Positions 22,051 through 49,539 of a DNA stretch of 64,000 bases are shown piece after piece. Both the position numbers and the translations under genes were made by a program. The stretch is from assembly GCA_030704615.1 (NCBI GenBank), contig CM060732.1, forward strand, positions 18,786,001-18,850,000, read 5' to 3'. Positions within the stretch are counted from its first letter, which is position 1, and each line of letters starts with the position of its first letter. Under the pieces are notes generated by a model. That model did not search any database. It worked only from the letters and a program-made list of their open reading frames with translations, and was not told the DNA's origin. The DNA is from Takakia lepidozioides. Taxonomy: Eukaryota; Plantae; Bryophyta.

Positions 22051-25000
22051 GTGCTTTTTTGAGTTCATTGGGGTCTTCACGTCTGTCCAAAAACATTGTC
22101 GATCACACCTCTGAACTGTGTGCGCCAACGCACTCAGTTTCCAGGTTAGACTTAATGTGATTCTCAGAATTCATAAGAGATCTCACTATGGAATAAACGC
22201 ACTTTCTATCTACCGTTCACCTCAGTCAATAGCAACTCAGTGATTCCATGGAGCTCAGAAATTGAGTGCGGTGGCGCACTCAGTTCAGGGTGACCACTCC
22301 ACTGTCTCTTGGACCTAAACTGTGAACATCACCTTCCTCTTTCCCTAATGCCCAAGCGATCGCCCAACATCCAGTTGAACTGAGTGCGCCACCGCACTCA
22401 GTTTCCCTGTGTCCCTCTCAGGCTTCCGTTTCAGATCCTGCTGCCTCTAAGACGTACTTATTCACCTCGGCCTACAATGGAAGTGATAGAGCTCCCCTCA
22501 AAACTGAGTGCGGTGCCGCACCCAATTTTCAGGGGATCTCTCGTATCCTGTCTATGCCACTTGGTACGACAGTCAAGCGAGATTCATGCAGTTTGGGAGA
22601 AGGATTACCCTGGGTTTCATGACACCACTTCCCGATGCCTCGTTCAAGCTTGACATTGGTTGTGTTTCTGTCGAGAAAGAGATCTATGACTTGGAGGGAA
22701 ACGTTCAAAGAACGTTGTTCCAGAAACCGCACGTTGCACAGAAACACAAGGAATGGAGAGTTCTTCCTGGAAAATATCGTGTGTTCCGAAGTGAAAGGAG
22801 ACAATCCGGTGGCTCCATTGTGACTCCTGAGACAGAAGCCTCTGTCGTTCAAGGAAAGCGGCATGTGACTGTGAAGCAGGAGGACACCACTTCAACAACT
22901 TTTGTGACACTGTCGGATTCCTCGGATGATGAATTGGCGGAAATACTAGCTCCCATGAACAGTCTTCTTGAAGGGGACGTCGATGTTCAGGAAATCATTA
23001 GCGTCATCCCACATCTGAAAGCATTGTCAGGAAAACCAGGATCCAAAAACGAGATCGCAGGGATACTGTGGGATTCATTCGCAACAAAAAGGGTTCTTTT
23101 CCTTCCACCTTCCTTTGACGGTGACATCCTCTTTGAACTGAATCCACCAACTTGTGTTGGGGGCCTTGCAGGTCTCTTGTAAGGAATTGATAAAAAGCAT
23201 GACGGCCATCCATGGTGCAGAACCAAAACGTCCAATATCCACAACGGTGTAAACTTGACATTCAGAAGGAGCGTTTGTGTGGGGCATCTGAGATGTGTGA
23301 ATGCAAGTTGCATGCGTTTCATGAAGAGCGGTGCTAAAAATGAGAGTGAGTGGGAAGGACTCTCCGACAATCTTTTTATCCCAAGCTGTGCCCCACCGTC
23401 TGCCAATACATTTGTTTGTAAGTTCTGCAAGGTGGCCCCCTCCTGCATTGCACATTGTTCTGCTCGCATGTACTACGTTACTCACCGTTGCAAAACCATG
23501 ACTCGAGCCTACATTCATTTTGGGACTCACGACCATCATGTGTCTCACGGCGATTGCAGAGATAGTGTGGAGTTGGCGCGTGGGCTTGTCGTGGAGGAGT
23601 TTGCAAAGTCCCCTTCAGCCAAACCATCTGCCATAGCGCTGGCTGCCAGCAAAAGTTTCCTAGAGAGGCACATTCTGGGGCAAGGAAGCGAATCCAGCTC
23701 AAGACTTGAGGGGGCGTCTTTGGATGCAGTGATGGATCACTTCTCCATGTTGAGCTCCCCCAATATTAGGAATCAGGTGAATGAATTGAGAGTGCGCGGT
23801 GGAAACACAGGGTCCATCGACACCATTATGGAGCTCAAGTGAATAAGTCAATATGACTTTATCCAATCTAGTGTCTTCTCGGGTCAGGGGTCTTCAAATA
23901 TTTACTTGTTCAAGATGTCTATGGTGGGCGAGGGCAGTGGCGTCAGCCTGGCCAGACGTATGCAACCAGGGGGGGATCTGGAGAAAGCCTGGATGATGTT
24001 CGATCATTGTAAACGAGTGAAGGGCTGGACAACCATGTCTTGCCATGTTTACGACCCGAACTACCAAAGAATAATGACAATTGCCATCTCTGACATGCAA
24101 TCTGAAGATACAGAGTCCCAGATGATAATGTGGAATTGTTTGCTTTCAGTCATGGAGTCCAATGGACATACAGGCATAAATTTCAACGGGTTTATGGCGG
24201 ATAGTGCACAGGCTAACTTCAACACTGTGCGCCGAGTTTTTGGATCTGGTGATCCAAAGGTACCCATGCCTAATAGGGAGCGCACATGTCTATTCCACTG
24301 GACTCAGTCCCTGCAGAAACATACGAAGAGGTGCATCAGAAGAGATCTGCAGGCGGAGCACATGAGGCTCTGTTTCATGTACAAGAATGCGACTACAATG
24401 GAAGAGGCTGAGACCAGTACCAGACAGTGAGAGCATGGTGGTTCTCGTCAAGGGCTACTGATCAGGACGGTGTCAAAGAATTGGAAGACTGGGTGGTCTT
24501 TTGGCACTTCAGATACAGGCAATGGGGGGCTTTCATGACTACTGTAAGCTGCCTTTCACCTCTGCAATCCCTTGTATGTGCCCAGTTTCTTTCCTTGTTC
24601 CCAAAACAGTCCGCGCTTGCATGAATGACGCTCTTTCATTTTTCTTTCACAGGACATGTCCCTTGAGGACATTGCGGACATGCCGTCCTGCAACCTGGCA
24701 AAAAGCGTTCACGCCGCTTGGAAGCAGCAATCTAGTAAAGCAGGAAGAGATCTGTACATTGCTACAACAGATAATCTGGTACGATCTCTAACCCAGCAAA
24801 CAAGATATCGTGACTTCCTCAGGGGGCGATGTGGGGGCAAGGGACCAGATACAGCAGAGTTGATGCTGAGGGCTGCAAGAAGGTCCGGGGATCCAACGAA
24901 GATGGCAAAGGCGGTGAAGGCGAATGCCTCCGCGTGAGCCTGGCCGCGTGAGCGTGTGAGCGCGGCCAAGCTCATGCCACGTCACCGGTTCTCGCCACAT

Positions 25001-25169
25001 TGGCTCATGGGTCCGACGTCACGTTAGCAGTCTTCGCCAGCGTGGTTAACGCCACGTCACGCCTTGCCATGTCATTTCCACGGGCGTACCTATGACCGCG
25101 GACAGAACATGGAGAAAAGGGCCTATAGTCGCGGAATTGGTAGCCGTAGATTTTTTTTCTTTTTTTTTT

Positions 25170-26640
25170 TGCATTTGACATTCAGCATTTGGGTGGATGT
25201 GATGATCGGTGCCGATCATTACTTCTGGTTATTTATTTATTTATTTGCTTTTGACATTTGGCATTTGGGTGGATGTGATGATCGGTGCCGAAAATCACTT
25301 CTGTCGGTGCCGCCGATCATTTATTTATTTATTTTTAAATACTTTTCTTTCATTCGGCATTTGGGTGCCGACCATCACATCTGTCAGTGCCGCCGATCAT
25401 CACTCTCCGTTTTTTTTTTATTTATTTTTTCCTTGACATTCGGCATTTGGGTGGATATGATGGTCGGCACCAACCATCACTTCAGTCAGTGCCGCTCATC
25501 ATCACTTTCTGTTTGTTATTTTATTTTATTTTATTTTATTGGCTTTTGACATTCGGCATTTGGGCGGATGCGATGGTCCGTGCCGACCATCACTTCTACC
25601 AGTGCCGCCGATCATCATTTTTATTTTTATTTTTTTTGACATTCGGCATTTGGGTGGATGTGATGGTCGGCACCGACCATCACTTTTGTCGGTGCCGCTG
25701 ATCATCACTTTCTGTTTTTTTTTTTTTTTAATTATTTAATTGGCTTTTGACTTCGACATTTTGGCGGATGCAATGGTCGGTGCCGACCATCACTTCTGCC
25801 AGTGCCGCCGATCATCATTATTATTTTTATTATTTTTATTTTTAAATAATAATTTTAATTTGGCTTTTGACATTCGGCATTTGGGTGGATGTGATGATCG
25901 GTGCCGACCATCACTTCTATTACCGATCATCACCCTCCGTTTTATTTTTATTTTTATTTTTTATTTATTTTTTATTTATTTTTTATTTATTTTTTATTTT
26001 ATTTTTTATAGTTTCGACATTCGGCATTTGGGTGGATGTGATGGTCGGCACTGACCATCACTTTTGTCGGTGCCGCTGATCATCACTTTATGTTTTTCTT
26101 TTGTTTTTTTATTTTTTTGTTTTTTTTAAATTGGCTTTTGACATTCGGCATTTGGGCGGGTGCAATGGTCGGTGCCGACCATCACTTCTGCCAGTGCCGC
26201 CGATTATCATTTTTTATTTTTTATTTTATTTTATTTTTTAAGTAATAATTTTAATTTGGCTTTTGACATTCGGCATTTGGGTGGATGTGATGGTCGGTGC
26301 CGACCATCACTTTCTGTCATTGCCGCCGATCTTTTTTTTTGGCTTTTGACATTAGGGCGGATGCGATGGTCGGTGTCGACCATCACTTCTGTCAATGTCG
26401 CGGATGATCATCACTTTCTGTTTTTTTTTTTCTTTTTTTTTTTTTTCTTTTTTTTGGCTTTTGTTATTCGGCATTTGGGTGGATGTGATGGTCGGTGCCA
26501 CCGATCATCACTTTCCGATTTTATTTTATTTTATTTTTTAAATAAATTTAAGATGGCTTTTGACATTTGGCATTTGGGTGGATGCGATGGTCGGTGCCGA
26601 CCATCACTTCTGTCGGTGCCGCTGATCATCACTTCTATAT
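25170..26640. repeat. Array of ~14 units (~75-bp conserved core plus T-rich variable linkers), most with a 24-bp dyad
   Basis: Core TTTTGACATTCGGCATTTGGGTGGAT-GTGATGGTCGGTGCCGACCATCAC-TTCTGTCGGTGCCGCCGATCATCA, separated by poly-T/TTTTA tracts. Confidence 0.92.
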
Positions 26641-26675
26641 ATTTTATTGTTATTTTTATTTTGTTGTATGCCTAG

Positions 26676-27710
26676 GGAACGCCACCTGGTTCGGATTCCG
26701 ATTCGCAGAGGGCAGACCGTGATAACTTCTCGAAGCCTCGTGTTCCCCTGTATGACAGATCCATGTCCGGAACCTCTATTCTGGAGGAACCTCCGACATA
26801 ACTGCAGGCTCCAGCATCAAACAGTGCCACTGAAATGATGCAGGAGAGAAACTACCCCCCTGATGTGCTGGAGTCTACATGCCCTGACCATGTTTGGCAC
26901 ATAGAACGCACAAGTGCAGGGTCTCGTGTGAAATGTACAGCAATTAGGGCAACTAATTTCGAAAAGTGCACTTCATCTATATCCAGAGGTGGTGCTCGGA
27001 CTCCTGCTCCGACTTTCACGGGTTTGATGCGTCCATACGGCCAACCAGAAGCCAAGAACCACAAGTTCTGGTTCTGCGCAGACGATTGTGGTAGATATGT
27101 GCATGGAACTGTGCGTCCTTCCGTGGTGATGAAGCCAGCTCCTCCAACCGTTTGGCCCGTCAAGGTGGGAACACATCTCACGAGTCAGGAGATTGCAATG
27201 TTGGAGGAGGCAGGATTTTCCCTTGCGAGACAACCCCAACTGCATGCATGTGCTTCTACTTCTACATCTTCTCGGGTCCCTCCGGCAAATCCTCACTTGT
27301 GGCCAACCAAACGAGATGGAAAGTTGGTTCGGCGTTTCCCTCCAACTGCTGAACACTTCGGCAAAGTGGAGTCCGCAAGAATGCTCCAAGCTCGTGTTGC
27401 AAGCACCACGGAAGTGCCCGATCCAGGATATGGTTGGGTGTACACAATGATCACTTCGACATTTGCTGTTCATGACAGGGCCTACGACATCACGGTTTCC
27501 AATTTCCCCAATTGCACTTGTTCTGACTTTGTGAATATGCTATCAACCAGTTTGGGCAAGAGAGGTAAATTCATACCCTGCAAACATTTGTATTTCATAT
27601 TTTTGAAGATGATGGTTTGCGATCCCAAACGTGACAACTTCGTTCACCAGGCCACTCTGAGTTTCAATGAGGTCGATACTCTATTACAGCAGGATACAAC
27701 ACATGGGTAG
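26676..27710 (+). pseudogene. C-terminal (SWIM) fragment of a paralogous MULE transposase
   Basis: GTPPGSDSDSQRADRDNFS, WHIERT, PAPTFTG, FWFCADD, VWPVKVGT and CTCSDF..PCKHLYFIF are collinear with 28400-29432. Confidence 0.85.
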
Positions 27711-29739
27711 CATCTGCTATGCAATGTGGTATGTGGACGACCATGCTATGAAATGTGCAATTTGCAACATTGTCATGGAAATTCAATTCAAATCAATTCG
27801 TTTGCAACATCGTCGGCGGTGCAATGATATGGCGTCCCTTATCCCTCCATTATGCTTTCAATTATACTGAGTGAGCTCTGAGTGGCAACTTTTAAAAGCA
27901 AATGCATCATGGCACCTTTCGAAGTCTACATGTTTTCATGTTGCTATGCATTGCAATCATCTTTTGAAGATGATCCTAACTCTCATTGTTATTTGGGGAG
28001 GGAGCAAGGTCTTCCCGTGGCAGCCTCTATGGCACATACTTTGTGAGGATATTTTCTCGTCTTTGTAATTGTAAAAGTGAAACAAACATTTGTAATTGCA
28101 CAATGTTGGATGCTACAATTGTAGGCCCCATGGTAGTCTTCATTGTATTCAGGCAAGGATTCCCTGCATTAATCCCACGGTCATAGGACCATCCTCGGTT
28201 ATAGGCGGCGCATGTTCATGCTGACGTGGCAGATGACGACGCAGTGTCACATCAGCATTTGTCGCCATATCAGCCTGCTGACATCACGCTCATGCCACAT
28301 CAGCGTGGGTGCACTCTCACGCCACGTCACTCTTGTGTGAGCATACGCTCGCGCGCTCACGCCATTGCGTCGTTGGGCAATGAACAGATGCACAATGGGC
28401 TCGCCTCTCCAATCAAGGGAGCCCCATCTGGAAGGAGAGGAAAGGTTTGGGACTTGCAAACGCAAGCTAAATACACCTCCAGGATCAGATGGGGATTCAC
28501 ATCGCCATGACATAGACAACTTCTCTGTACCCACTGTCTCTACCTGCAACCCCTGTAATTGCGGGTTTCCAGCAGGACCACGGGGGGGCAGTGCAAGAAT
28601 CACCTTGTGCTGACTCCGAATGGAACATCGAGCGAACTACTCCAAGGTCTAGAGTTGGCTGCGCTGCAGTGAGGGCCATTAGTTATGAAAAGTGTAAGTC
28701 CAAGATAGCCAAAGGCTCAGCGGGTACTCCAGCTCCGACGTTCACATGTTTGATTCGGCCATACATGTCAAAGGAGTCGAAGACACATAAATTATGGTTC
28801 TGCCCGGACGATATGGCTCGCTGTGTGAATGGTACCGTCCGCGACTCCTGCATTGCTAAGCCTCCCCCACCCACCATTTGGCCAGTGCGGCTGGGAACCT
28901 CCCTAACAGCACTGGAGATTGGCAAGTTGGAGGACGCTGACTTTCGTCTGCACCGATCTGTGGCGTCGACTTTTGGTGGCCTTGCTGCTATGGTGCCTCC
29001 TCCAGACGATACTTCGCGCATCCCACAAGAAGGAATGGCAAAACAGTACATCGGGTGGCTTCAGGGCCTGATCACGATGCGAAGGTGGAATCGGCCAGAC
29101 TACTTCAGGCTCGGGTAACAGGAACTATGGAAGTACCTTCACCTGGGTATGGACAGGTTTATACTTTGGTCTCATCTGGGTCTGTTTTGCACGACAGGGC
29201 CTATCAGGTGACGGTGGGAAATTTTTCGGGGTGTACCTGTCCCGACTTCGTGTGCATGCGTGAGGAAGCTCTAGGAAAGAGAGGGAAATGGGTTCCCTGC
29301 AAGCATCTTTACTACATCTTTTTGTGCAGGATGTATTGTGATCCCAAAAGAGACCAAATCATTCACCAGGCGACACTAGGTCCTGGTGAGGTACGGACAC
29401 TTTTGCAGCGAGACATTGGCAATATCGAGTAGTGTTGCATATGTTGCGATTTTTCGCAATGTCGGAAAGGGTTGCCTTGTTGGTAGAACATGTATACACA
29501 GTTCTTAAATCTGGACAAGCAGACGATGTATCGTTATGAAAGGTAGTTTATTTTTTCATCGGGTTTGGTTAACGAGCCTCTAAAATTGAATGCGTCAACG
29601 CACACCACTTCTGCCCCCAACCCCCAATATTGCCCCGGGCAAAAACAAAATTAAAATTAAAATTAAAAAATGTCTTTTTTTTTCGCGGGCCTGCCAAACA
29701 TGGACAAGTGTCAGTATGAAAGCTCATTTTATTTTTTCA

Positions 29740-31200
29740 CGGCCTCTACAGAAGCATTGCGTAAATGAGCTTCATGATGACATCTGTTTTTTTTTCCACT
29801 TCTTCTTGAATAACAGGCACCTGAACAAGTTTCACAATGACAGCTCATTTGTTTTCCATGTCCTCTATACAAACAAACCCTAAATAAGCATTCATGATGA
29901 CCATATGATTTTTTTTCCACCTCTTCTTCAATAACAGAAACTTGAAGAAGTTTGACAATGATAGAGCTCAAGTTTTTTTTTCACCTCTTCTTCACAAACA
30001 ATCCCTAATTTATTCATGATGACCATCTGATTTTTTTCTCACCTCTTTTTCATCAACAGAAACCTGAACAAGATTGACAATGATAGAGCTCAATTTTTTT
30101 CACCTCTTCTTCACAAACAAACCCTAAATAAGCATTCATGATGACCATCTGGTTTTTTTTCACCTCTTCTTCAATAACAGAAACCTAAAGAAGTTTGACA
30201 ATGGTAGAGCTCAAGTTTTTTTTTTCACCTCTTCTACGCAAACAATCCCTAATTTATTCCCTAAATAAGCATTCATGATGACCATCTAGTTTTTTTTTCA
30301 CCTCTTCTTCAATAACAGAAACCTGAAGAAGTTTGACAATGATAGAGCTCAACTTTTTTTTCACCTCTTCTTCACAAACAAACCCTAAATAAGCATTCAT
30401 GATGACCATCTAATATTTTCTTCACCTCTTCTTCAATAACAGAAACCTTAACAAGTTTGAGAATGAGAGCTAAATTTTTTCACCTCTTCTTCACAAACAA
30501 ACCCTAAATAAACATTCATAATGACCATCTGATTTCGTTTTTAACCTCTTCTTCAATAACAGAAACCTAAACAAGTTTGACAATGATAGAGCTTAAATTT
30601 TTTTTTCACCTCTTCTTCACAAACAAACCCTATATAAGCATTCATGATGACCATCTGATTTTTTTTTCACCTCTTCTTCAATAACAGAATCCTAAACCAG
30701 TTTCACAAGGATAGCTCAATGTTTTTTCTTACCTCTTCTTCACAAAGACACCCTAAATAAGCAATCACAATGACCATGTGTTTTTTTTTCACCTCATCTT
30801 CAATAACACAAACCTGAACAAGTTCCACAATAAACCGCTCATTTTGTTACACATCTTCTTCACAAACAAAGCCTAAATAAGCTTGAAGATGGTCATCTGT
30901 TAAATTTTCACCTCATCTACATTAATAAAAACCATTGTCTGTTTCACAATGAGTGCTCATATTTTAGGGCCCATTCTCATTATTTTAAACCTCTCCTTCA
31001 ATATTTCATCCATCCATCATCCATCCACCATGGATGAAATACTGGAAACGTCAGATAGCTTGACAATGAGCATCCAAACTTTTCTTGCCTCTTGTTCATG
31101 CAAGAATCCCTAAGTAAGATTCATGATAACTCACCCACCCTTTTTTTTCACCTCTTCTTCAATAAGAAAACCTCAATAAGTTTCACAATGACCATTCCAT
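29740..31200. repeat. Subterminal tandem repeat, ~118-bp dimeric unit, about 10-12 copies
   Basis: Two alternating subunits both start TTCACCTCTTCTTCA (..ATAACAGAAACCTGAAGAAGTTTGACAATGATAGAGCTCAA / ..CAAACAAACCCTAAATAAGCATTCATGATGACCATCTG). The units degrade toward both edges. Confidence 0.92.
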
Positions 31201-31390
31201 TCTTTCTATACCTCTTTTTTTAAGCGCTATAACTGCTTCCACGACAATAGGACCCTCTCTAAACAGAGGACTCGGGTATGGGGCGTGCTTCTTCCTCCAC
31301 TAAACCCCTGGGCTCACGCTTAGAGGGCAAAGCGTGAGCAGCCGAACTCCCGGGCTCACGCGGCTAGGCTCATGCCGTAGCTGCACTCCT

Positions 31391-34300
31391 ATAAACGGCA
31401 AGGGAAAATGATCCTTGTGCGTTACCTTGTTAAGGGGGCGGAAGTCCACGCATACCCTTAATTCTCCGTTCTTGGGCACCCCTTTCAACTCGGTGTAGGA
31501 CCACGCGAAGATGTCTCTGAATTCCTTGAACAAGGCCTGGTACTATGCCGCCTATTCTACTGTCAAATGGGATCCAACCTTCACCATCTTGGGTGATTCT
31601 CCTCCCACCGCCATATCGACCAATTGCGTTGTTGGCTCGGCTGTGAAGGTTGATCCTGGTTCAAACCTTGATCCGTTTGACCCTTGTTGTAAATATGGAA
31701 TGTAGGGGGCACTATGTTTCATCACATCCCTTTCTAGGTCGGCCTCCTCTACAATTCTCATTTCATGATCTCGCCATTCTCCTCCTGAGGAATCTCTGGT
31801 TCCTACAGACCAACGGGTTTGGCGGATATCGAGAAGAGCTCGGTCAGTGACTCGAACTCTGGAAGTGCCTCGGTTGATACCGAGTGTACCATCACCTCCT
31901 TGCCTTGGTTTTCCCCGAATAACCAGGCGATGCAGTCTGCATCAGACTCGCATTCATATAAACCCGGACCTAGGGACTTGACGGCATCCTCTAGTCCTAC
32001 CTTCCTTCGCTCAACCTCCCTACGAGGCGCGGTGCTAGTTGCTAATACTCGGTGGACATGTGACATTGGATGGATCTCTCTATCTGTCCACCAGTCCTCC
32101 TCACTCAAGTCTGCAGATTCCTCTTCAGAACCAATCATGTTGAGCTCATCCTCATCTGTTTCGTGGTGAGGTGCTCCCGAAAGAAAAGCGACTGTAGTCG
32201 TGTAAGGTTTTATCCCATAAGTGATGGTACCTGCCCCCAGTCCGTTCGAGCTCGGGACTGGACCAACCATGGCCTTCCTAGTAGGAGTGCGTAGGAATAC
32301 TCATCAATGGGGAAATCTATGATTTGGAAGTCTACCGCGTACGTGTAGCCTCCGGTCTTTAGCCGAACATTCGCTAAGTGACCCACTGGTCTGATCTTTC
32401 GTTGGTCAGCCAGTCTGATAGTTAATATAGACTCCCCTGTCATGTTCAATCCTAACTTTGACAAGGTGGAGAGTGGCATGATGTTGACTGAGCTCCCATC
32501 ATCCACTAAACAACGTTGTATCAGATGGTCTACAATCTCCACTTCTATTTCTACTGGGCCCGGATCGACATGGGCGTTAATGTGGTGGGTCTGAGCAAAA
32601 GTACCTACTCGCTTCCTCACCAAGGATGCCTTGAGAGCATGTCGGAGTGTTGGTGCCAATGCTATGAGTTGGGCAAATGTAATGTTTGCCTAAATGTGGC
32701 GCAAGTCTTCCATTAGATTATACGGCTCCAACTCATCGGTGAAGCGCATAGTGGAGTGTGTTCTCCTTTTGGGAAGCTTCGCTGGTGCTACTGGTCGATT
32801 GGCCGGACTCTTTGTTCTGGATGTCAAAAGTGGCCGAGAAATGGTTGACCGGACTGCCGGAGATTCGGTCTCTGCAAATGCTACCTCCTTCTCCTTGGGA
32901 TGGGTATCCTCTTCCTCCCCGAGTACAGTTTCCGCCACCTTCCGTGTGTCTGACTTCATGACTTTAAAGTTCAGATCTTCCTATTCTGATGCCGATGTGG
33001 TTGACTCCGACGCCACATACCCAGGGCCTTTTCCTAGCATATCTCGTTGCTGTCGGGTCATTACTGCATAGCTACCTTCCTCTGGGTTAGCCTACGTAGT
33101 TTGAGTGGCGCCGAGCTCACTGGAAATCCAATTGATTTGGTGTTGCGTCTCCTGTTGACGGGACGACTGGCCGGGATGCATACTGGCCTGCTGCTGGGAT
33201 GGCGCTGAAGTAGATGCTTGCTGCCCTCCCTGCACCCTTACATCCTGAGGGGGAGACCACGTATTAGAAGAACCCTGGGCTATCTGAGCCGTAGGATTTG
33301 AATAGGCTGCTCGGGAATTCTGTCCCATAGCTGCATTGCCCCCAAAATATGATGGGTCTGCCTGATCTGTTCTAGGCCGCTGCGCTATCTGCGTTGGAGT
33401 AGCAAAATACATGCTATGTTGTTGTGGTAGAGGGTTGGGTGGTTTAGTGGTATACTGATCCGGGAAGGTGCTCGCCGCCCTTCCAAATTCCTCTCTACTT
33501 GTTGAATGGTGGCCGGCGTAGGCTGGTCCACTTGTCTATGAGGACATTTGTCCAAGGGGTGACCTCGTTGGCCACAGTGCAAACACACAATGTCACTCCA
33601 ACAATTTTCAGTTGGGTGAGTGGTTCTTCCGCACTTTTGACATCCTCTACGGGATTGATTGAATTGTCTTTTTGGTTTATCTTGATAAGTTGGGTTCCGG
33701 CTTATCTGCCTTTCCCGAATGGGATAAGGACAATGTTGAGACGCATGTCCCGAATTGTTGCAATTGGAACACCATACCTTGGCCGGGTTGGGGCCGGACT
33801 CTCCAACTAGGGCCGCATCTCGGTACCCCACATAGCTGGTAATCTGCTGACCGATTGAGCTCATGCAGTCGCCCATTGTTTCAATTGTCTTGATGAGAGA
33901 AGTGACTTGTGCCTCTAGATGGCCCACTCGCGAATCGGATTGTCCGCTTGAATCTGCCTGTGAGTTGGTAAGAACAACATTTGTGTATTGCGGCACCGTT
34001 GGCGCTATTACGGGTGTCGGGGATGTTGCTGGGGCATAGGGTCTCACTCCTCCTACATAAGATGGCGTGTAATGCAGCGCGGGCTGGATTACCGCTAATG
34101 GTGTTGGCTCCTGCGCGGGTTCGATTGAAATATACGATGGTAGAGCAAAGTCGGGCATCTTAGCTCGTTGTACTTGGCGATGCATGTTGTCAAATTCCTT
34201 GCCCACTTGTATGGCATCTACCAAAGTTGCAGGTCTTTGCTGCAAAACATGAAAGTGAGTGGCCTCTCGTAATCCACTCAAAAAACAATCTTTGAGTACC

Positions 34301-36670
34301 CCATCATCTAGGGGGGTCAAAGGGTTTTGGAGTCGCATTAGCTCCCTGAATCGCATTTCGAAGTTTGCTACCTCCTCTGTGGGGCCTTGGCGAATCCTTG
34401 CCAATGCCATCAAGACACTGATGAACTAGTGGACTGCCCGAAAATGATCTACAAATGCGTCCCGAATCTGCTGCCAAGTAATAAATATACCTGGAGCCTG
34501 TTGCCAATACCAAGTAGATGCTCTTCCCCTCATGGTTGTGGGAAACCATATCAGCCAATAGGCATCATTTAATGCTTGGTTAGAGTAGCAACATTGAATG
34601 AATTTTCATGTGCTTCCCCGGAGAACCAAGGCAGATGCCTGGGCAGCGTGAGCGGGGGTAAACCTGTTGGAACCACAATGGGTACCTCAGGAGGTCCTGG
34701 AATATGTGCCATGATTGACACTAATGACGGCGAGGGCCTCCTTGACCTGGCCGGTGGGGTATAAGGGGGACTAGATATAGGGGAAACCACTCGTGAACAC
34801 TCGATGTCCGAAGAACTTTCAGTGTTCTCTCCTTCCCACTCTATCTTTCCCAAACTTCTAGTTTCTGAGTCTGACTCTGGACTCAAGGCTGGGTTTTTCC
34901 CTAGCAACTGATCACGAACGGCTTCTCTAGCCAGTCTTCTCTGTAACCTGGTATCAAACGATATGCTATCCAGGCTTGGGAGTATGTCTCTCGATCCTGA
35001 GCTAGACATACACTCACTATTGTACCGACAAGGATTCTCCTGCCTCAGTCTGTACTGAAGGACCTATATTTCCTTGAACTACCATGTCAAGAATAAACGA
35101 GGTCAAATCTGCATACCTTCCATGAAACCGCAGCGATGGAGGCACGTCGGTGTGCAATCTTCCAGGTATCTTCCAATCTTCAGGTGGTCGAGGTATGATG
35201 CAATACCTACACTCATCCAGTCTACGCACATAATGGGATGCCAAGAGCTGGCATACATGACAATGAGTGAAGAAATCTACCTGCCACCTTAAATGCGCTG
35301 TGAAGGAAGACCTGGGGTGCAAGGCCCCTAGGTATATCCCCGGGCATGAACAATATGGCCAGTTAAGCCTGTCGTTACACCAGTAGAAATGCTCCGGTGT
35401 GTCTGTTGACGAGGGTCGTTCACACCAAACCCGTTCGTCTATTCCCCTTTTCTTGATGGCTTTCCGTTGAGCTAAGAGATCGATGTACGCTTCTATTATA
35501 AGTTGAATTTCTGGTTCATGTTGCCAGAATCTGCTTCGAATCCTCTTGATCCTAGCCTCAAAAGTCATACCCACTTTAGAAGTTCATGCGGAAATTTCTT
35601 ATCACTCCAAAGCATGATGTGGATGACGTTTTAGATTTCAACCATTGCATTGATTGTGTCAATTGGCAAACATTGTCAACTGAAATGGAAAGCATAAATG
35701 CACTGTGGGGTCTTCCCCGATTGTTGGAGGCAGCTTTACCTATTCTACTACTGGCAAGTCCTCGTCTATTCCCATAGGTGACCCTGGCGCTGAGGTCCAA
35801 GGAGAGCTGCTAACGGAAGAAATAGCATGCACTATCTTTAAGGGGATGATAGGGAGGAAACTGGTGGGGGATTCCCGTGCAAAATTAAAGGGCGGTGGCC
35901 GCTCTGGGTCCGCAATGACGCCTTGAGGAGCTGCTGAAGGAGGACCTTCAATCCAAGTAATATCATGTATGGTCGGCGCCACGTCCAATCGGCCATCAGT
36001 GATTAATTCAATGATCAATGCTGCTGCACTTTCACTGCGGCTATTGTAAAATCTGGGTGGACAGATATAGGTGATGGTAGTGTTCGGGTGAGGCAGGCGT
36101 TCCTCTACCTCCAGATAGTCTTCTAATCCACACCCAAACAACCAACACATCCAATCAAAAGGAAGGTCAATAAAACTCTTCTTGGTTAGATAGGAGATAG
36201 CTTCTCCAGACCTCCGGATAGTGGAACGGGGACGATGAAAATCGATTCCCTCGTCAGCAATGGTTTGACGTAGAGGGCAACACCCTAAATACGCCACTTG
36301 CCAGGCGAGATGTGCTTCCAGCGAGGATTGCACGTTGAGGTTCCCTAAGAAGGGGGGTTGGCAACATCCAGGCCAACGCGTATTGAATCTGAAAAAGGAA
36401 GAGATGGGAGAGGTAAGAGCCCTGTCTACCAACGGCCCTACTTTGGCCGAAATCCAGTACCCACGGTTTTCTTCGGCGATGTCCAAGATATGTCTGCGCA
36501 TTAACCTGCAGACCACAATAGCATCTTTTGTCCGCACTTCGCCGGATCGGGTGCCTGAAATGACACGATATAGGCCCACAACGCGAGCCTCAAACGACAA
36601 GTGGAAACGATGGGCTGCCATCTGGTCGGTGATCATGCTGCACCTCCAGGATTGCCATATCGTTAGTCCT
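31391..36670 (-). mobile_element. Ty3/Gypsy retrotransposon A, 5' half (extra ORFs, gag, protease, start of RT), decayed
   Basis: gag 35009-33385 (RQGPTEEVANFEMRF, three CCHC knuckles), protease CLVDDGSSVNIM..LLGRPWL, and RT FRDIFAWSY..LRVCVDFRPLNKVTHKDHFPLPF. Same strand as, and complementary to, 19345-21419; treating the two as one element is an inference. Confidence 0.88.
35017..36636 (-). pseudogene. Extra ORF region upstream of gag with two paralogous copies of an unknown Cys/His/Trp-containing domain
   Basis: ORFs 35740-36636 and 35017-35574 are in the same frame and share FEAR, WP-x-C...LG-x-L...SS..AHL-x-WQV...C and PP..F motifs. Confidence 0.6.
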
Positions 36671-36673
36671 CAC

Positions 36674-36860
36674 AAGGATGCCTCGGCGTGAGCCTGGTCA
36701 CGTGAGCGCAACTGCGCTCACGCCACGTCACCTTGCGCCAATGCCACATCACGGGGCTCACTCCACGTCATCACACTTGAAGACCGCGTCACCACGCGCC
36801 CAGGAAGAAATGGAGTGTATTCCCGCGGATTGGCACCCTTTACCGCGGAAACAAGCTGGA
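36674..36860 (+). mobile_element. MULE-family terminal inverted repeat (left-type end)
   Basis: aaggatgcctcggcgtgagcctggtcacgtgagc..gctcacgccacgtcacc matches the element end at 24919 (gcgaatgcctccgcgtgagcctggccgcgtgagc..gctcatgccacgtcacc). Confidence 0.7.
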
Positions 36861-36974
36861 CGACATAATAAAAGGCATTGAATAAAAGATGGATGAATGT
36901 ACAGTTGGATGATAAACAGATGGATGAGTGTGAAAAATGAATGTAGATGGATGAATGAGGGATGGATAAGAGTC

Positions 36975-37235
36975 AAATGGATGAATGTATAATGGATGTT
37001 GAGCAATGACAAACATTCATGACAGGAAGATGCATGACTAAAACTTTAGACAAATGCACAACATATATGACATGAGTGTGGAAGGTTTGTGGGGTGGATT
37101 AAAGAGTACAGAGGATGAATGTACAATGGATGTTGAACAAAGGAAAACATTCATGAATGGAGCACGCATGAATACACTGTAGATGAAAGCACAATGGATA
37201 TGACAAGAGTGAGGGAGGTTTGTGAGATGGATTCA
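36975..37235. repeat. Two ~135-bp tandem copies in a GATG-rich tract
   Basis: ggatgaatgta(t/c)aatggatgttga..aacattcatga..gcatga..gcacaa..atatgaca.gagtg..aggtttgtg occurs twice. Confidence 0.7.
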
Positions 37236-37364
37236 TACATATTGCAATTTAAATGGTAGTTGATTCTTTGATTATTTTTCTTTCCAAAGGAACAACTACG
37301 GTGGATGAAGGGGATTCAACGTTTTCCAAAGAGGATGAAACAGAATAGTAAAAGAACATAGTTC

Positions 37365-39630
37365 AGTCTGACTCAGAGTCAGTACAATGTATCCCCACTT
37401 CCTCTGCATCTAAGTCTAAGTATTTAAGAACTCCGGATCTACGCTGGCTACACCTACGGCCGGGCAGTAAAAATTCAGGGGATAGGGACTCGGCCGCGTG
37501 AAGTGCCATTGCTTCGGCATAATCAGGAAGCAGAAAATTGGAAAGGGGGCTGTCGAAAACAGACTCGCCACAAATGACTGTATCTCCTGAAGATCCACCG
37601 CTGTCTTTCCTGAAAGACAGCCTGAAAAAGTTATTACTGTAACTTTGATGTTATTGAGAAATTGAGTATGACTCCCAAAGTGGGTTTAGCACTTACTCAC
37701 ATGAAAAGTCGTTGTCGACCTGCTTATCTTCGGGATCGTCATCATTTTGAATTTGAATCCGATCAGTCTATGTGCCTGAAGTGGAGCCAGACAAAAGGGG
37801 GAGGAGCACTGTGCTGTAGAGGTCAGAATCACCCTCCATGCCAAAAAGGCTTCTTCCGCCTGTCTTGCATGCATGGTAAGTTGCTCATACACCAGACAGG
37901 AGGACATGAACAATTTGGTGGGGGGGATTTAAGCAGATGGAACTGGTGAAAGAAAATCAATTTGGAAGGGAGAGAACGAACCTGTGGACACAGAAAGATC
38001 GACCACCCGTGCAGAGTAGTGGCTGCATGACTCCAGCAGTATTTGCATGAACGCTGGGGATTTTTCCTTTGCACCTCTCCAGGGAGTGCCATCTGGTCTC
38101 TTCAGAGTCTGACTGGACTGCATGAAGTTGTACAAAATGTCATCGACATGCGGCTCATAGGGGGGGTTGACGAAACAACCCTGGTCAGAAATCTCAAAGT
38201 TGCGGATGGAGGATGGTGTCTTGGAGGTGCGAATCCTCCGCAGGCAGATCGCCTCGAACATCCTCGTCTGCCAAAGATAGCAGGTTAGTGTGGTAAACAC
38301 AATCTATAGTGGAAGTGTGTACATCGACTATTCAGACTTCAGGCACAAAACAATCATTTTTATCACGAATCGGTGATGATCGGTGTCGATCATGACAGAT
38401 TCTTCTAGAGTGGAGCTGCAGAGAACATTGAAACTCATCATGAAAGCACAAGCAGAAGGGAGACGGCATACCAGCTGACCAGGGAAACCCTCTTTCACAA
38501 GGTAGAGGCTGTTCACACAATTCCATGTGCGCAAAACTTCAAACCCTGAAGACTTGAGGTATGATGCCAATGCCCGACGACTATCTTTGTCACATGACTG
38601 AAAAAGCAGAAGTGTCCCTGCATCAGAGAGGAAATTATTACAGAACCTGAACACCCAACTCCAGTAGTTGTCCTCGAATTTGTTCCAGCCTGGCGTCTTG
38701 CCCTTTGGAAGCACTTCTGGCACAGCCTGGCCATCCGGGATGTCGAGAATGACAATGTCAGCCGCATATGTTTTCTGCACACCACACACGAAGGTGGGAC
38801 CTGTGCTCACCTGCAAAAGACATGTTTTTTTTAAGAACGATGGCAAGAATGTTTTCAAAGAACCAAACTGAAATACTGCCAATGAAACTTTCAGAGAAAA
38901 AGGAAAGAAACTGGAATTCTCACCAGATTGAGGAATGAGATTATGTTGTCCCAGGTAGGCGAAGGCACCCCAGTGTATCCTCTCTTTCGACTCTGCATCA
39001 TCGACAGCCAACCCTCATTGACAATTTAAAACTCTCCTGCCGAATCAGAACGGGAAGGGTGTGGCTTGGCATCGAACACGCACTGAACTGTGCGGGTATA
39101 TCTTCCAGCAGTGAAGTCCTGCCCACTCTCCATCTCCTTTTCTTTCTCCTTCCCCTTGTCATTTTCCTTCTCTTTGGACTTGTCTTTGTCCTTTGGCTTT
39201 GCTGGTGAGATGGCTATGACATCAAGAGCCTTGTCTTTTGGTTTGCGGCCCGCCTTCTTTCCCTTCTGCGGCGTTCCTTGAGCATCAAGCTCCTTGCCAG
39301 CCAATGTTGCTATGTTTCTTTGGTACTCTTCGTCAGTCAGAGGCGCCAGCATCTCAGCATTATTGTTCAAATATTTCATATGCTGTTCTTGAAAGGTCGT
39401 GTGCTCCGGTGGGCAGTCAAGGTACCAGCCACAGTCTCTGAAGTGAGAAGGACTCCAGTCCTTCAATATCCCTGCAGTATACATGGTTGGATCGTTTGCA
39501 GGGTCCGACCACATGTCAAGATAGTCTGGAATACCGCTCAGGTGATTTCCTTCCATAAGCACATATTTCGTGTACATGTTAAACAAGAGATAAATCCCAA
39601 CCCACCAAAGCGCGAAGTGAGTAAGATGCA
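37365..39630 (-). pseudogene. Intron-containing beta-class amino (N6A/N4C) DNA methyltransferase-like gene, 3' half
   Basis: Predicted exons ~39625-38924, 38810-38472, 38267-37982, 37886-~37701 and a last exon to ~37365. Motifs occur in beta order: ADIVILDIPDG (DPPY-like motif IV), FLSDAGTLLLF, PWRGAKEKSPAFMQILLESCS, RVVDLSVSTG|ATYHACKTGGRSLFGMEGDSDLY (motif I and SAM-binding strand). Two acceptors read AT instead of AG, and there are in-frame stops. Confidence 0.8.
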
Positions 39631-39659
39631 AGTAGCACAGAATGAAAAAAACATAGAAT

Positions 39660-40245
39660 GAAATGGCTCTGAGAACTGCTCCAAGGACCTTTCAGGACCA
39701 CACGACTGCTCCGGATGTGAATGTCGTCAACGCCATTCAAAACATTCCATTCAATGATACTGTAAATACACCCTAATCCACGTGAATGCAAACTCTCGCT
39801 TTGGAATGACACAGACATAGAAGTGAATGTCGTCAACGACATTCACTTTGGATTTGTGAATACACTGCTAATCAAGCCTAATGATTTCTCAAAAGAGGCA
39901 AAATCATTAAATGAAAATCAGAAACTCGACTAAGGAACCCTCCCCAAACATTCATAACGAACATAACACTGAGGACCTTATAATAACACTGGATGTGTAT
40001 GGCGTCAACGCCATTCACAAAATTACCAACAAGGAACCAATTAATTAGCTCCCAATCCATGTAAATTCAAATTGTCGTTGGTGAATGACATAGATATAGA
40101 AGTGAATGTCCTCAACGACATTCACTTTGGATCTTTGATAACACAACTAATCAAGCCTCAAGATTTCTCGCAAGAGGCAAAAGCAATGCAGAACAACTGA
40201 ATGTCTGCATTGACATTCAGCAAACTGAAGTGAGGAACCCTCACT
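39660..40245 (-). repeat. Two ~280-bp tandem intronic units; a third copy lies inverted at 43810-44040
   Basis: Each unit has two GTGAATGTCGTCAACGACATTCAC-type dyads (39717, 39823, 39995, 40102; and 43865, 43987). Confidence 0.85.
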
Positions 40246-40619
40246 GTAAAGAGGAGAGGAGGAAAAAGAGAAAGCCCGCGGAAGGGAAGGCGAACGCGGG
40301 AGAGGAGGAGAAAGAAAAGAGAAAGCCGCGGGAGGTCAGGGGAGAAAGATCGTGGAGCGAAAAAAAAAAAAAAAAAAAAAAACATACAAAACGACGATTC
40401 CACGATTCGATCCCGGGATGCATCGCGGCGGAATCGCCATTCTTACCACTACACTATCCCTAAAAACTCAACAACCCCCTCCTGTAAAATTATATTTAAG
40501 GTGTTTTAAACCCCCCTTTGTATGTATAATGTTGTACATGGGGGGGTTTAAAATACCCCCTCCTATGCACGCACGTGGCTGGTACATTTAATGAGGAGTG
40601 CACCCCCCGGGAGGGAGAG
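40245..40619 (-). mobile_element. Displaced (inverted) left end of the P-like element: TIR 40596-40611, TSD copy 40612-40619
   Basis: The minus strand reads CTCTCCCT-CCCGGGGGGTGCACTC. The 16-mer is identical to the right end at 49378-49393, which is followed by CTCTCCCT. Both ends share TACA(G)GAGGGGG-like subterminal motifs. Confidence 0.85.
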
Positions 40620-40958
40620 AGACTTCCTTGTTCGCCGCCATTCATCAAAGATCCAGAGGAGGGCTCCTAGGAAACTTCATAAGCAGGCAGGTGGTACCTC
40701 CGCCATCACTGCCGTGGTTCCCTTGTGCAGCAAAAAAATAGACAAATGTGACAGTGAATCTTCCCTCATCTCTAAGCCACCGCCATCGTCTTAAAGAGCC
40801 CACATACGTGGCGCTCACATTTCTCGCAACGCAAGAAGAAAGACATTAGGGTTGCGCAGGGTTTTCCCCTGTCTGGCCCCTTAGAGAGAGACGCAGAGCA
40901 AGAGAGCAAATGACGAGGCGTCGTTTGTTGGAGAACACAGGGCCAAGGCAGCAGGTGA

Positions 40959-43776
40959 ATGGAGACTGATTCACAAGAGCAGACCGAGACTGAGGCAGCG
41001 GCTGATAACAGTGCGCGTTGGAAACCAGCCTGTGGATGCAGAGATGACTCGCAGGGAAATTGAAGGAGGTGGAAGCACGAGGAACGCTGAACCGGGAGAA
41101 GGTCCAGAAACCCTAGAGCAGACAGAAATTCCAGCAGATGTGAGAGGGAAGAGGAAAGCTGCAGAAGGGGATCCAATTTCAAAACCTATGAAGGCGCCAG
41201 TAAGTTTTCTCTAACTTACATTTCATTGTTGAAGATCTGCGTAGAGATTGAGTGGAATGTCCCAGAAAGGGATTGTCGCTACCGACCATCACCACGAAAC
41301 AACGGTGATTTGCTTTCTACTCCTCTATTAAGGGTTTACCGCACAATGAGTGGGTGACTGACGGTACCGTCAATCACCGTTGTTCAGATCATACAGTCTG
41401 TCTGATTGCCTTTCAAGTAGTCCTTCCTCTTCCCTTCTTTAGCAGGAACATGTGATTGAAGTCTACTGAATTGCGAGCGTCGTTAACGCCATTCGATTCT
41501 CCTCATGAGATTTATTTACCTATGTGTTTGAAGAGAGAGTGAGGGTCGGCATATTCAGTCATAATGTATTGCAATGCATTTTCTTTGTATGAGGTTGAAT
41601 AGATAGAGAAGTGGAAAGGCGGTACCGCCAATCAAAGATTTGAAGACCATACTGTAGATTCAGGTAGAGTATCGATTGGAAAGTACTCTCGACAAAGACA
41701 GGAAACCGTGAATGCTTGCAACGGTAATCACAATGGAGTCAATCTGAATAATCTGCACTTACTGTCCGCCCTAAACTATACTGAATGTCGTTGCCGCCAA
41801 TCACTTACACATATATGTCATTACACAACACCGATCTGGCAGGTCCTTATCTTTTGTGATTGTCGTTAACGCCGTTCACTATCGCTCTCGCTTTTGTTTT
41901 GAATTCGGCAGGATCAGCTTTGCTTGTGTAGATGGTTCTGAATTTGTTTCACACCATTCATTGTGAGTTTCTTCGAGACAGAGTGATGGTCGTTACCGCC
42001 GTTCACTATTTGCAAATTACTCAGTCAAATTTGAATGGCATCGTGCAGAAAACTGTGAGGTCCAAGCCTACAGGATCAGAGGGGAAAGGATCTGGAGATG
42101 GGGACGAATCTGGAAAAAGCTCAGAGAATACAGATGAAGCAGATGAATCTGAAGTGCACTACCTTGACAAGGTGAAAGAACTCATGTCATTCCAGAAGGT
42201 AAACTCTCAGGAGGTTATAAGGGACATGCTCGTATCTAGAGGGCGTCTGGACATCCCTCTGTGCCGGATGATATCTATGTCTGTTGTGCGTCCACCTCTT
42301 TCCCATGATATAACAAAATTGGAGAGTGATTTTGTGCATGGATACAGACTTGGTGCACAAGTTTTTTATGTGTCACTGACGGATATAAATGGGAAAAGCA
42401 CATTAGTGTCTCCAGAGATCAGTGATAACTGGGATGAGTGCTGGAAAGATGCCAATGAGGAGTTCGAGCTGGGCCTCATGATGGGAAAGAACACCCAGCA
42501 ATTCTGCAACCACATGTTCTACGTCTGGGACGGCAACCACCGATTGCTGGCATGGATGGGATACATCCAGAAACACCATGTGAAAGACAAAGACAAGCAT
42601 GTTGCTGTGGAGGCAATGGTTTTTGATCCAGGAAACGACATCGCTAGGCTTCTTACAGCTATGCACGACGTGAACAAGTAAGTCATCCTAGAGATTTCAT
42701 TCCCTCTGTAGTGTCTTGTTAATCCCCCAAAAACAGTGTTAAGGAATGCAATGTTTCCAATGTTTTTGCAGATCGACAGAGAAATCGCATGTGACAACAA
42801 GCTTGGTCCACACACTTTTCCAAATTCAGAGGATTGGTCTGATGAAGCTGGATGATTTTCGGACAGTACTCCCACCCAATATAATCAAGAAGTGCAAAAC
42901 AAGAAGAGCTGCAGGCACTTGGTATTCTTTGACTCGAGAGGCGTTTCTGGAATACATGTATGCGGTAAGCCCAAGTCTGTACTCAGTTTACTTTTTGAAT
43001 ACATGTTTGTAGTCCCTTCGGTGCTAATCACTATTTGAATCAATGCAGCAAGAACTAGCAGAGGCAGCTGAGAAGGGAAAATCCGAATATTACCGCACTA
43101 CACCAGAGGAACTAAGGACAAAGGGTGTGGAAGCAACAATAAAGAAGGAGTTTGAAATGCGAAGAACCAAATTGATGTCCGCCTTCAGAAAACAGCTTAG
43201 AATAGTAGATCCTGGACTTGGTTTTGAGTTCCTTCAGCAGATCAAATCTCACTATGACAAGCATGTGCATCCGGAGATGCAGCAGGAGAAATTGCACCGG
43301 TTGGCCATATCCATGGTCGACCCACAAACAAAAATAAGGTGGCTGGAGATATGGAACTCAGAAGGACTTGAATCAGTTCCCAAAGAGCACCATACAGCCT
43401 GGCACAAAGGTGAAAGGAATCAGTGATTTGGTGTTTGATAACTGGCTCCACAAGGCTACATTTTGGAGTCAGGTGTGTATTCAAATCAGCCGTTTTCTTT
43501 TCTTCAATTATGTGATGAGTATCTTATTTGCAATACTGACAAATATACAATTTGCAGCTCGAAAAGCGCGCCGTCATTGTGCTGGATCAGACTTTGAAGG
43601 ACTTGAACATTTCGATTGTTTCCCCTCCCCAAATGTCATTGGAGGCATACATAAGGAAGTGGAGAGGTCTCACCTGGAGATACTGTTTTTTCCGGGAGTT
43701 CTCCAAAGATGGTAACATTTTACGGTCCAACGACTTTGACAGTCAGGTTGGAGGAGAGTGGGCCATGATGCGAGTT
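40959..43776 (+). pseudogene. ParB/Sulfiredoxin-like-domain gene (copy 2), probable 5' half of a ParB-methyltransferase fusion
   Basis: Exons ~40959-41199, 42049-42677, 42772-42964, 43049-43472 and 43558-43776 are GT-AG. VRPPLSHDITKLESDFVHGY and FYVWDGNHRLLAW resemble ParB/Srx box I/II (DGxHR). Two frameshifts, and no terminal exon downstream on +. Confidence 0.78.
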
Positions 43777-44057
43777 GTGTACAGGTGCAATATCATACTG
43801 AAAACTCTACTGCATTTTTTGGGAAATAATTTGGCTTCATAAGGATTGTAATCATAGATCCAAATTGAATGTCGTTGACGACATTCACTTCTTTGTCTGA
43901 GTCATTCTTAAGCGAGAATTTGAATTCACCTGGATTAGGAGCTTAGGGTGTAATTATAGTGTCCCTGATTAGAATTGATAATGTCCTTGAATGGCGTTGA
44001 CGACATTCACATCCAGAGTTGTTGAGAGGTCCTCAGAGTCGTCCCTAGATTTCCAGA

Positions 44058-44460
44058 TGGCGGATTCCAAGCTCCAGATTACCTATGATTCCATGTGGAA
44101 TGATAGCTACAAGAAACCTGGATGGGTAGATGGTCAACTGGAAGCCACAGTAGTAGCTGCAGAGGCATGATGTACGCATTGTTAGTGTGGAGGGAGGGGT
44201 AGCTGTTGATGCAGGGAGAGGATCATGGGTGCAAAATCATCCAAGAGGGCCAGATTTGGAGCAAGGAACAGCGCTGGCAGGAGTTCTATAAATTTGATCC
44301 ACAGCGGTGGGACAATATTGTCAACAAGGTGAGCTTTCTTCATGCAACATCGTAGGGAGTTTGACAGAACTTTGTATTTAAATATGTTAGTGTGGAGGGA
44401 GGGCTAGCCGCTGATGCAAGGATGGACTGTGGGTTCAGGATCACCCAAGAGGGCTACCAG
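44058..44460 (-). repeat. Dispersed repeat family R copies at the inversion breakpoint
   Basis: Reverse complement of TTGACCATCTACCCAT..GGTTTCTTGTAGCTA..GGTAATCTGGAGCTTG and GGCCCTCTTGGATGA, also seen at 51770-52035, 60740-60910 and 61632-61803. Confidence 0.75.
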
Positions 44461-49102: not shown

Positions 49103-49139
49103 TTTGTTAGATTTTATTATGTTTTAAATGAATAAATTC

Positions 49140-49401
49140 GATATAATATAAAAACATACATATACATATTGGAGGGTTATTTTTAATGATGAAAAATGAG
49201 AATATACATACAGAAGGGGGTACTTTTCGAAAATTGTAAATTTTTGTATATTTACAGGAGGGGATTTTATAATCTTCAAAAAGTATGTACAGAGGGGGTA
49301 TAAATTATCCAAGGACCCGTATACATGGGGTTTTTTTTATTAGGCGACGAACGCATGTGATACGCACAGTTTATAAAGAGTGCACCCCCCGGGCTCTCCC
49401 T
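49140..49401 (+). mobile_element. Right end of the P-like element: subterminal repeats, TIR 49378-49393, TSD 49394-49401
   Basis: GAGTGCACCCCCCGGG-CTCTCCCT, preceded by about five TACA(G/T)..GGGG motifs. Confidence 0.85.
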
Positions 49402-49539
49402 CCCTTTATAAACCCTACCTTTTGAGACCAAGCTCTTTTTTCTTGTGCTTGGCAAGACTTTGCTTTGGTTAAGGTAGCAGTGTTGTGGTGCTGGTGGAGA
49501 CCTCCCTGCACGGTTAGGCTTGAGGAGAGATGACGACTC

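Follow-up and report, generated by a model that had tools for sequence, protein, structure and literature searches.

What is the function of a family of short palindromes that recurs both in and around a gene for a ParB-like DNA methylase and in a tandem array elsewhere on the same stretch of DNA? The question is raised by 64,000 nucleotides of the genome of Takakia lepidozioides (Bryophyta; contig CM060732.1 of assembly GCA_030704615.1, positions 18,786,001 to 18,850,000 of the forward strand), here called the window, in which all coordinates below are given. An earlier note, made from the letters of this DNA, had proposed that 24-bp dyads shared by the introns of the ParB-methylase gene and by an array in a MULE derivative are binding sites for a dimeric protein, so that sites and protein would form a cis-site plus enzyme system. 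Comparison with related environmental sequences has now tied a 10-bp core within these dyads to diverged relatives of the ParB-methylase gene. The reading tentatively preferred, which falls a little short of probable, is that the dyads are a conserved palindromic cis-element of a many-copy ParB-methylase element and are likely to be bound by a dimeric protein encoded by the element, most probably the ParB-methylase.

Results and discussion

The dyads in the window

All the dyads to which the earlier note had given coordinates were present at those positions. Two perfect forms recur, the array dyad and the GTGAATGTCG-type dyad. A search with the array-form 24-mer, allowing up to 3 mismatches, gave 12 distinct positions from 25199 to 26607 and none in 100 shuffles. 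The second form was found at six positions in the ~280-bp units listed in Table 1 and also at 41856, and the variants at 38373, 41269, 41354, 41781, 41856 and 41983 all have a CG-N4-CG centre with 5–7 of the 8 arm pairs.

When dyads were sought that have a CG-N4-CG centre and pair at 6 or more of the 8 arm positions, 23 were found, against the 0.32 expected from 100 Markov simulations. As a non-circular check the search was repeated with a single half-site only. This gave 33 matches, compared with 4.8 expected, and all but about 7 of them (roughly the chance number) had the partner arm at the exact spacing. The half-site matches being nearly all paired, the dyad and not the half-site is therefore the unit.

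The consensus put forward earlier, GTGA-NN-GNCG-N4-CGNC-NN-TCAC, fits only 6 sites in its strict form. Direct reading bears out the 18/24 identity of the two perfect forms, with six symmetric differences. As both forms are perfect palindromes, however, the symmetry of these differences is automatic, and the comparison amounts to 9/12 identity between half-sites with three half-site differences. The flanks, which had been described as unrelated, are mostly so, with 27–33% identity as against 73–76% for the dyads, but a GGAT before the dyad, a TT after it and a GACATTC motif are shared.

Most of the dyad copies are duplicates and are not independent. The six dyads at 39.7–44.0 kb belong to a ~280-bp unit that carries two of them and is present three times, twice in tandem and once inverted. 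The five dyads of the inferred first intron have 76% mutual identity with flanks at background (27–31%), and are either old and conserved or separate arrivals. The description of the dyads as intronic is exact for these five (41269–42006), but the copies at 39.7–40.2 kb lie between oppositely oriented halves of the gene.

A second class of dyad, absent from the earlier note, has the form GTGCG-N4-CGCAC with arms ACTGA/ATTG and occurs at 22115, 22261, 22379, 22503 and 15435/15708. Each ParB-like copy in the window adjoins a different dyad class, and each class is also found near the MULE-like remnant. Class II cores are scarce in the related loci described below (3 distinct sites, in three related contigs), so the association of one dyad class with each gene copy is a pattern of the window only.

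Conservation of the dyad core in related loci

Metagenome contigs were scanned with an alignment of ten ParB-exon relatives. This gave 223 relatives, from which 80 loci with 33–45% protein identity to the query were kept and dereplicated to 58 loci (229,945 bp). The exact 24-mer of the array had no match in the metagenome contigs. The strict core TCGG-NN-CCGA (TCGGNNCCGA), on the other hand, gave 60 sites in 21 of the 58 loci, where 0.6 were expected and the maximum in 30 simulations was 2. This 10-bp core is common to all the families, the window array included, and the outer arms vary between families while staying complementary. Same-core dyads are thus found beside diverged ParB-exon relatives, which supports the claim of a conserved dyad linked to the ParB-methylase gene.

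The dyads lie 200–1600 bp upstream of the ParB exon and also after later exons. Their spacing is regular in several families (51, 75 or ~127 bp), with seven copies at ~127-bp spacing in locus L024, five at 75 bp in L050 and four copies in L004. Loci L044–L047 carry CCAACTTTCGGCACCGAAAGTTGG together with TG/CA-decayed copies.

A covariation check, as the earlier note had suggested, was run on the sites selected by their core. At the seven outer positions the arms pair in 73.5% of cells, compared with 48.0% for shuffled columns (0 of 500 reached the observed value) and 40–47% for slid controls. Changes on both sides were seen at all seven outer pairs, and at least 5 of the 7 outer pairs were formed in 28 of the 60 sites as against 0 of 19 simulated ones.

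Symmetry of this kind might also arise without a dedicated protein, if the dyads were self-propagating hairpin or cruciform palindromes in which replication or repair, by template switching between the arms, keeps the symmetry and slippage amplifies the copies. As single-stranded DNA the perfect dyads have a predicted fold of -10.8 to -12 kcal/mol (z -5.5 to -6). This strong folding is in keeping with such a process, as are the free covariation of the arm sequences, the asymmetric centre of the array dyad, which is found in both orientations (GTGC/GCAC), and the many copies that are plain duplications. It is nevertheless judged quite unlikely, as a specific 10-bp core has been conserved though the ParB exons are only 33–45% identical to the query, and as the dyads of intron 1 have been conserved where their flanks have drifted to background. 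In the L020/L060 family, moreover, the core is kept in at least nine copies whose flanks are conserved but asymmetric, and no stable hairpin is predicted (-3.2 kcal/mol, a value equalled or bettered by 68 of 200 shuffles). The retention of the core where there is no hairpin potential suggests, therefore, that it is the sequence that is recognised and not the hairpin alone.

The same observations bear on a role at the RNA level, in which the dyads would form short hairpins in the introns of the ParB-methylase pre-mRNA and affect its splicing or processing. Many copies do lie in inferred introns, in the window as in the related loci, and pairing is preserved. The stems are just 10–11 bp, however, the array is not known to be intronic, and Rfam gave no match in 21000–45000. 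With a conserved core that favours sequence over pairing and an L020 family that does not fold, this role is very improbable.

The ParB-methylase gene

A search with exon 2 of the window gene (P0001) led to P0005 of the moss Ceratodon purpureus, a protein of 1147 aa that contains a PF01555 N6/N4 methylase domain (E 4.9e-7). A second relative, P0159, likewise carries PF01555. When P0005 was mapped onto the window by tblastn it fell into three pieces, given in Table 1, in the first of which, the N-terminal half, residues 220–607 correspond to 42196–43520. The closest protein relatives are those of C. purpureus and of ferns and liverworts (Adiantum, Riccia), which by themselves suggest a seed-free land plant as the host.

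An AlphaFold (AF2) model of the ParB exon was built on 44 relatives, with a predicted local distance difference test score (pLDDT) of 80.5. Its best structural match was the N-domain of Caulobacter ParB (7bm8_A), with Z 9.0 and a root-mean-square deviation (rmsd) of 2.1 Å over 94 residues (VIA). The model also matched the N-domains of Noc, KorB, PadC and sulfiredoxin (Srx), with Z 7.7–9.0 for ParB, Noc and KorB. The top Foldseek matches were all ParB, Noc or Srx (E 0.04–1), and 7bnr_A was in the top structural set. According to the model, then, exon 2 folds as a ParB N-domain; a DGNHR motif is conserved in it. Both of the names given to the gene in the earlier note hold, ParB by the fold predicted for exon 2 and methylase by PF01555 in the full-length moss homologue. 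The window fragments alone were below the Pfam threshold: 28 + 12 + 12 + 23 open reading frames (ORFs) of the window gave no ParB, MULE or methylase match at threshold. For the exons that follow the ParB N-domain the alignment was shallow, with intron read-through.

The two halves of this gene copy are oppositely oriented, and the split falls exactly between the inverted ~280-bp dyad-bearing units (39589–44039). In the related loci the exon for residues ~664–738 follows on the same strand, so that the gene of the window has most likely been split by inversion between the ~280-bp units. The arrangement suggests recombination between these repeats, although the split could alternatively be an artefact of assembly. 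Among the contigs of run X1 that map on 37700–44400, no piece bridging the inverted repeats or the junctions was found.

Mobile-element context

The locus belongs to a very-high-copy element family. On 37700–44400, 14,133 contig pieces of run X1 map at a likeness of at least 90%, with summed depths of ~1e5, and at many positions nearly all contigs differ from the letter of the window. A search of a representative library with the ParB exon gave 513 relatives (E<=0.001), mostly exon-sized fragments, and two diverged ParB-like copies are present within the 64 kb. Because of this very high copy number, the ParB-methylase is taken to be an accessory gene of a transposon and not a host gene. Searches for the termini and target-site duplications of the ParB-methylase element found neither.

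The ParB half is followed by a P0004-type ORF and by matches to DUF4218 (E 3.5e-19) and DUF4216 (E 1.4e-8) in Pfam, two families typical of CACTA/EnSpm transposases; no Transposase_21 match was seen among the window ORFs. P0004 matched nothing in Pfam or the PDB, and the relatives of the P0004-type ORF are found in ferns and liverworts. This gene adjoins the ParB gene in the window and in the related loci L042 and L066.

The tandem array belongs to a different neighbourhood, with a MULE-like ORF on one side and a SWIM-like ORF on the other. The MULE label given to it earlier is weak: it is favoured by a language-model lead (0.96) to ZSWIM/MULE clusters, by the reading of the ORFs and by a SWIM match (E 0.011–0.035) that is below the cut-off, but Pfam gave no MULE match at E<=5. 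Relatives of the MULE-like ORFs were present in 0 of the 80 related loci. No long inverted-repeat pair enclosing the array was found, the only candidates being short GCGTGAGCC clusters, nor was a reverse transcriptase split by the MULE-like element, which would have given its insertion borders. Two ~60-bp blocks rich in the GCGTGAGCC motif, one beside the array and one beside the methylase half, are homologous, with an alignment score of 50 where shuffled sequences gave a mean of 18 and a maximum of 27. The motif occurs three times more on the minus strand at 31308–31375. These blocks may be element ends, and the array may be part of a non-autonomous element related to the ParB-methylase element by both ends and dyads. 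Close to the opposite end of the element that bears the array, at 29725–30933, there is a second tandem array with a period of ~122 bp (two ~61-bp sub-units). GATGACCATC, found in its units, is similar to one arm of the array dyad but lacks the core.

In CACTA/En-Spm elements, dyads of a short motif serve as binding sites for the TnpA protein. The dyads of the window could likewise be binding sites for a transposase, as subterminal or internal repeats of a CACTA/En-Spm-like kind, with the ParB-methylase a mere passenger. The P0004-type, DUF4218 and DUF4216 reading frames adjoining the ParB half point in this direction, as does the P0004-type gene beside the ParB gene in L042 and L066. So too does the array, whose element is a different one that has a MULE-like remnant but no ParB gene, and which is flanked by GCGTGAGCC-type blocks resembling element ends. 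The dyads, however, are distributed throughout the ParB gene and on both sides of the ParB exon, also in contigs of 1–3 kb, and are not limited to recognisable ends; neither element termini nor target-site duplications were found. A transposase-like (P0004-type) gene was within reach in only 2 of the 80 loci and a MULE relative in none, a weak point given that most contigs are short. The long related loci had no transposase domain. On balance a transposase as the binding protein is rather unlikely.

Proposed assignment of the dyads to the ParB-methylase

Recognition of the dyads by the ParB-methylase itself would operate as follows. A dimer of a protein encoded by the element, most probably the ParB-methylase, would grip the dyads and, once bound, would modify the DNA of its own element or hold it together. 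The array-bearing element would be served in trans. The methylase would have to be active. The cis-site plus enzyme system of the earlier note is, on the sequence evidence, the best-supported reading and is supported in part: the gene-linked dyad core, the covariation of the arms and the identity of the gene all speak for it, but the link to a MULE is weak.

Several observations weigh against this assignment. The strict core is absent from 37 of the 58 dereplicated loci, though many of these are contigs of 1–2.5 kb or have TG/CA-decayed copies. All 8 strict-core sites of the window lie in the array, which lacks a ParB gene itself, and the dyads of the ParB-methylase locus have symmetric changes in the core (TCGT..ACGA, ACGG..CCGT). 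Because the related loci were collected by way of the ParB exon, the co-occurrence may reflect the element as a whole, with any of its proteins as the possible partner. On the side of the protein, Pfam recognised no ParB in the 44 ParB-exon relatives, and a sequence profile of these relatives gave only a chance match to eL24 in the PDB. The one part recognised, the ParB N-domain, is not the portion that reads DNA in bacterial ParB, and a domain that would do so, helix-turn-helix or other, was not identified in the protein. Motif IV of the methylase, usually DPPY or SPPY, is atypical (DTPF in P0005, DQPY in P0159 and DIPD in the window), and the gene copy itself is in the two opposed halves described above.

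Comparison with known systems

Related proteins are already on record in algal transposons. The transposon Sola1-1_Ec32 (Sola1) of the brown alga Ectocarpus encodes a 1104-aa protein with ParB-like and methyltransferase parts, which its authors propose to bind and modify its own element (PMC12477816). P0005 is similar in being a single protein of ~1100 aa in which a ParB-like part and an N4C/N6A-type methyltransferase are both present. The host and the type of element differ from those of Sola1-1_Ec32: the best relatives found here are from a moss, ferns and liverworts, and no Sola1 transposase was seen. The likeness is one of description and not of sequence comparison. A dyad core is here attached to the gene, whereas the accessible part of the Ectocarpus report describes no cis-sites for Sola1-1_Ec32 (PMC12477816).

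In red algae (Bostrychia), elements of the Plavaka (EnSpm), Mutator and Zisupton groups carry the accessory genes PAG2, a PF01555 methylase with a SET domain, and PAG3, a ParB-like domain with a 2-oxoglutarate (2OG) oxygenase, according to a preprint (10.1101/2025.02.11.637652). The preprint also mentions 'tandem arrays of inverted repeats' adjoining the ParB-like accessory gene and states that PAG3 moves between transposon superfamilies, including Mutator; its authors propose PAG3 to bind and modify the element that carries it (10.1101/2025.02.11.637652). The ParB-like N-terminal domain is common to PAG3 and the protein studied here, and the best HHpred match given for PAG3, 7BNR, recurs here as 7bnr_A among the top structural matches. 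Features of the PAG3 and Sola1-1_Ec32 type found here are the ParB-like N-domain, the fused PF01555 (P0005 and P0159) and the clustered inverted repeats by the gene. Unlike PAG3, however, a methylase is present in place of the 2OG oxygenase, PF01555 being there in the separate PAG2 gene.

The N-domain fold and the multi-copy palindromic sites are also reminiscent of bacterial ParB–parS and of Noc and KorB. In contrast to the bacterial ParB systems, neither a helix-turn-helix domain nor a ParA partner nor a CTP-binding motif could be identified here, and the sites, 24 bp long, are of another architecture. By analogy, short repeated dyad motifs read by an element-encoded protein would also recall the TnpA repeats of En/Spm and the VANC system of VANDAL elements, although no protein or motif homology to either is shown and the dyads here are in introns as well as in arrays. 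VANC is an anti-silencing protein that changes the methylation of its own element, as cited in the red-algal preprint (10.1101/2025.02.11.637652).

A literature search, from which supplements were excluded, found algal papers only and no description of a land-plant ParB-methylase system or of the dyad core. When titles and abstracts were searched with six half-site strings, the 15 papers listed of 76 held chance primer matches only. Since ParB-like accessory genes with repeats, and ParB-methylase fusions, are already present in algal transposons, the system is not of a new kind, but a defined motif is added to it.

Other features of the window

The coordinates of the features discussed are collected in Table 1.

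Table 1. Dyads, repeats and genes of the ParB-methylase locus and its surroundings in the window
Feature	Position	Strand	Remarks
Second, diverged ParB-like half	12967–15109	+	P0005 residues 168–593
Class II dyads	15435–15731		GTGCG-N4-CGCAC type; 3' of the last exon matched in the second ParB-like copy
Four class II dyads	22115–22526		ACTGAGTGCG-N4-CGCACTCAGT, 118–146 bp apart; just upstream of the MULE-like ORF
MULE-like transposase remnant	22508–27710	+	ORF 22508–24430 with two in-frame stops; SWIM-like ORF 26802–27710
~60-bp GCGTGAGCC-rich motif block	24924–24986	+	Just left of the array; homologous to 36678–36732
Tandem array	25143–26649		13 units, spacing 76–182 bp
Tandem array, dyads	25143–26649		GTGATGGTCGGTGCCGACCATCAC or close variants in 12 of 13 units
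Tandem array, strict core	25143–26649		TCGGNNCCGA in 8 units
Second ~60-bp motif block	36678–36732	+	Just past the 3' end of the methylase half-gene
C-terminal methylase half	37777–39589	-	P0005 residues 661–1131; motif IV DIPD
Single dyad GTGATGATCGGTGTCGATCATGAC	38373–38396		Flanked by exon-like matches of the methylase half; same as array unit 25199 at 22/24 positions
Two tandem ~279-bp units	39689–40185	+	Two GTGAATGTCGTCAACGACATTCAC dyads each (39717, 39823, 39995, 40102)
N-terminal half	41045–43784	+	Exon borders inferred from GT-AG sites and homology starts
Five intron dyads	41269–42006		41269, 41354, 41781, 41856, 41983; inferred first intron 41200–42047
Exon 2	42048–42678	+	Predicted to encode the ParB N-domain fold
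Inverted ~280-bp unit	43811–44039	-	77–85% complementary to 39689–40185; dyads 43865, 43987
Transposase-like genes	45926–51381	+	Downstream of the ParB half: P0004-type ORF, then DUF4218, DUF4216

The window as a whole is eukaryotic and crowded with mobile elements. Pfam matches of its ORFs include Ty3/gypsy fragments (integrase, RNase H, gag and protease) and a plant bHLH-MYC_N fragment. At 52712–54828, on the minus strand, a reverse transcriptase ORF (RVT_1, E 7e-16) abuts another that matches PF00145, the domain of C5 cytosine DNA methylases (E 3e-10). Methylase-carrying retrotransposons have been described in a charophyte and in dinoflagellates, and this retroelement may be another. It may then represent a second, unrelated mobile-element DNA methylase within the same 64 kb.

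A repeat of ~115 bp is present three times (44045–44167, 51772–51882 and 60739–60857; 79–84% identity). It is the bin of deepest contig coverage, many contigs end at its borders, and it is a separate, very abundant repeat that adjoins the inverted dyad unit. At 40345–40465, past the tandem dyad units and ahead of the ParB half, a tRNA-like stretch on the minus strand is followed by a long T run (poly-A on the plus strand). This may be an insertion resembling a short interspersed element (SINE); neither ARAGORN, which found no tRNAs, nor Rfam made a call there.

The AATT-centred palindrome array at 10036–11060 was considered as a member of the dyad family and rejected, as it forms the arms of a separate foldback element of ~1 kb. 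These mutually inverted arms consist of tandem CAATTCAATTGAATTG palindromes with a 24-bp period, ~2 kb upstream of the second ParB-like copy. A long C-rich minisatellite at 58479–59626 contains ~90 copies of 10-bp CACAGCCCGT-type units, with higher-order periods.

Conclusions

Accessory proteins of transposons that combine a ParB-like part with a DNA-modifying one are on record from red, brown and green algae. The window and its relatives provide a candidate site for the methylase-fused form, namely a 10-bp core within symmetric 24-bp dyads, and this makes the hypothesis derived from the algae directly testable. For annotators, it means that such 'genes' are high-copy mobile DNA and that the palindromes in their introns are not noise.

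By analogy with ParB–parS, a further possibility, though an unlikely one, is that a transposon family of land plants encodes a ParB clamp-methylase that would load at its own TCGG-NN-CCGA dyads, whether in introns or in arrays, spread from them and write N6-methyladenine or N4-methylcytosine (6mA/4mC) over the element. If this were true, the mark would be a self-addressed epigenetic one, with which the element and its dyad-bearing non-autonomous relatives could escape or set the silencing imposed by the host.

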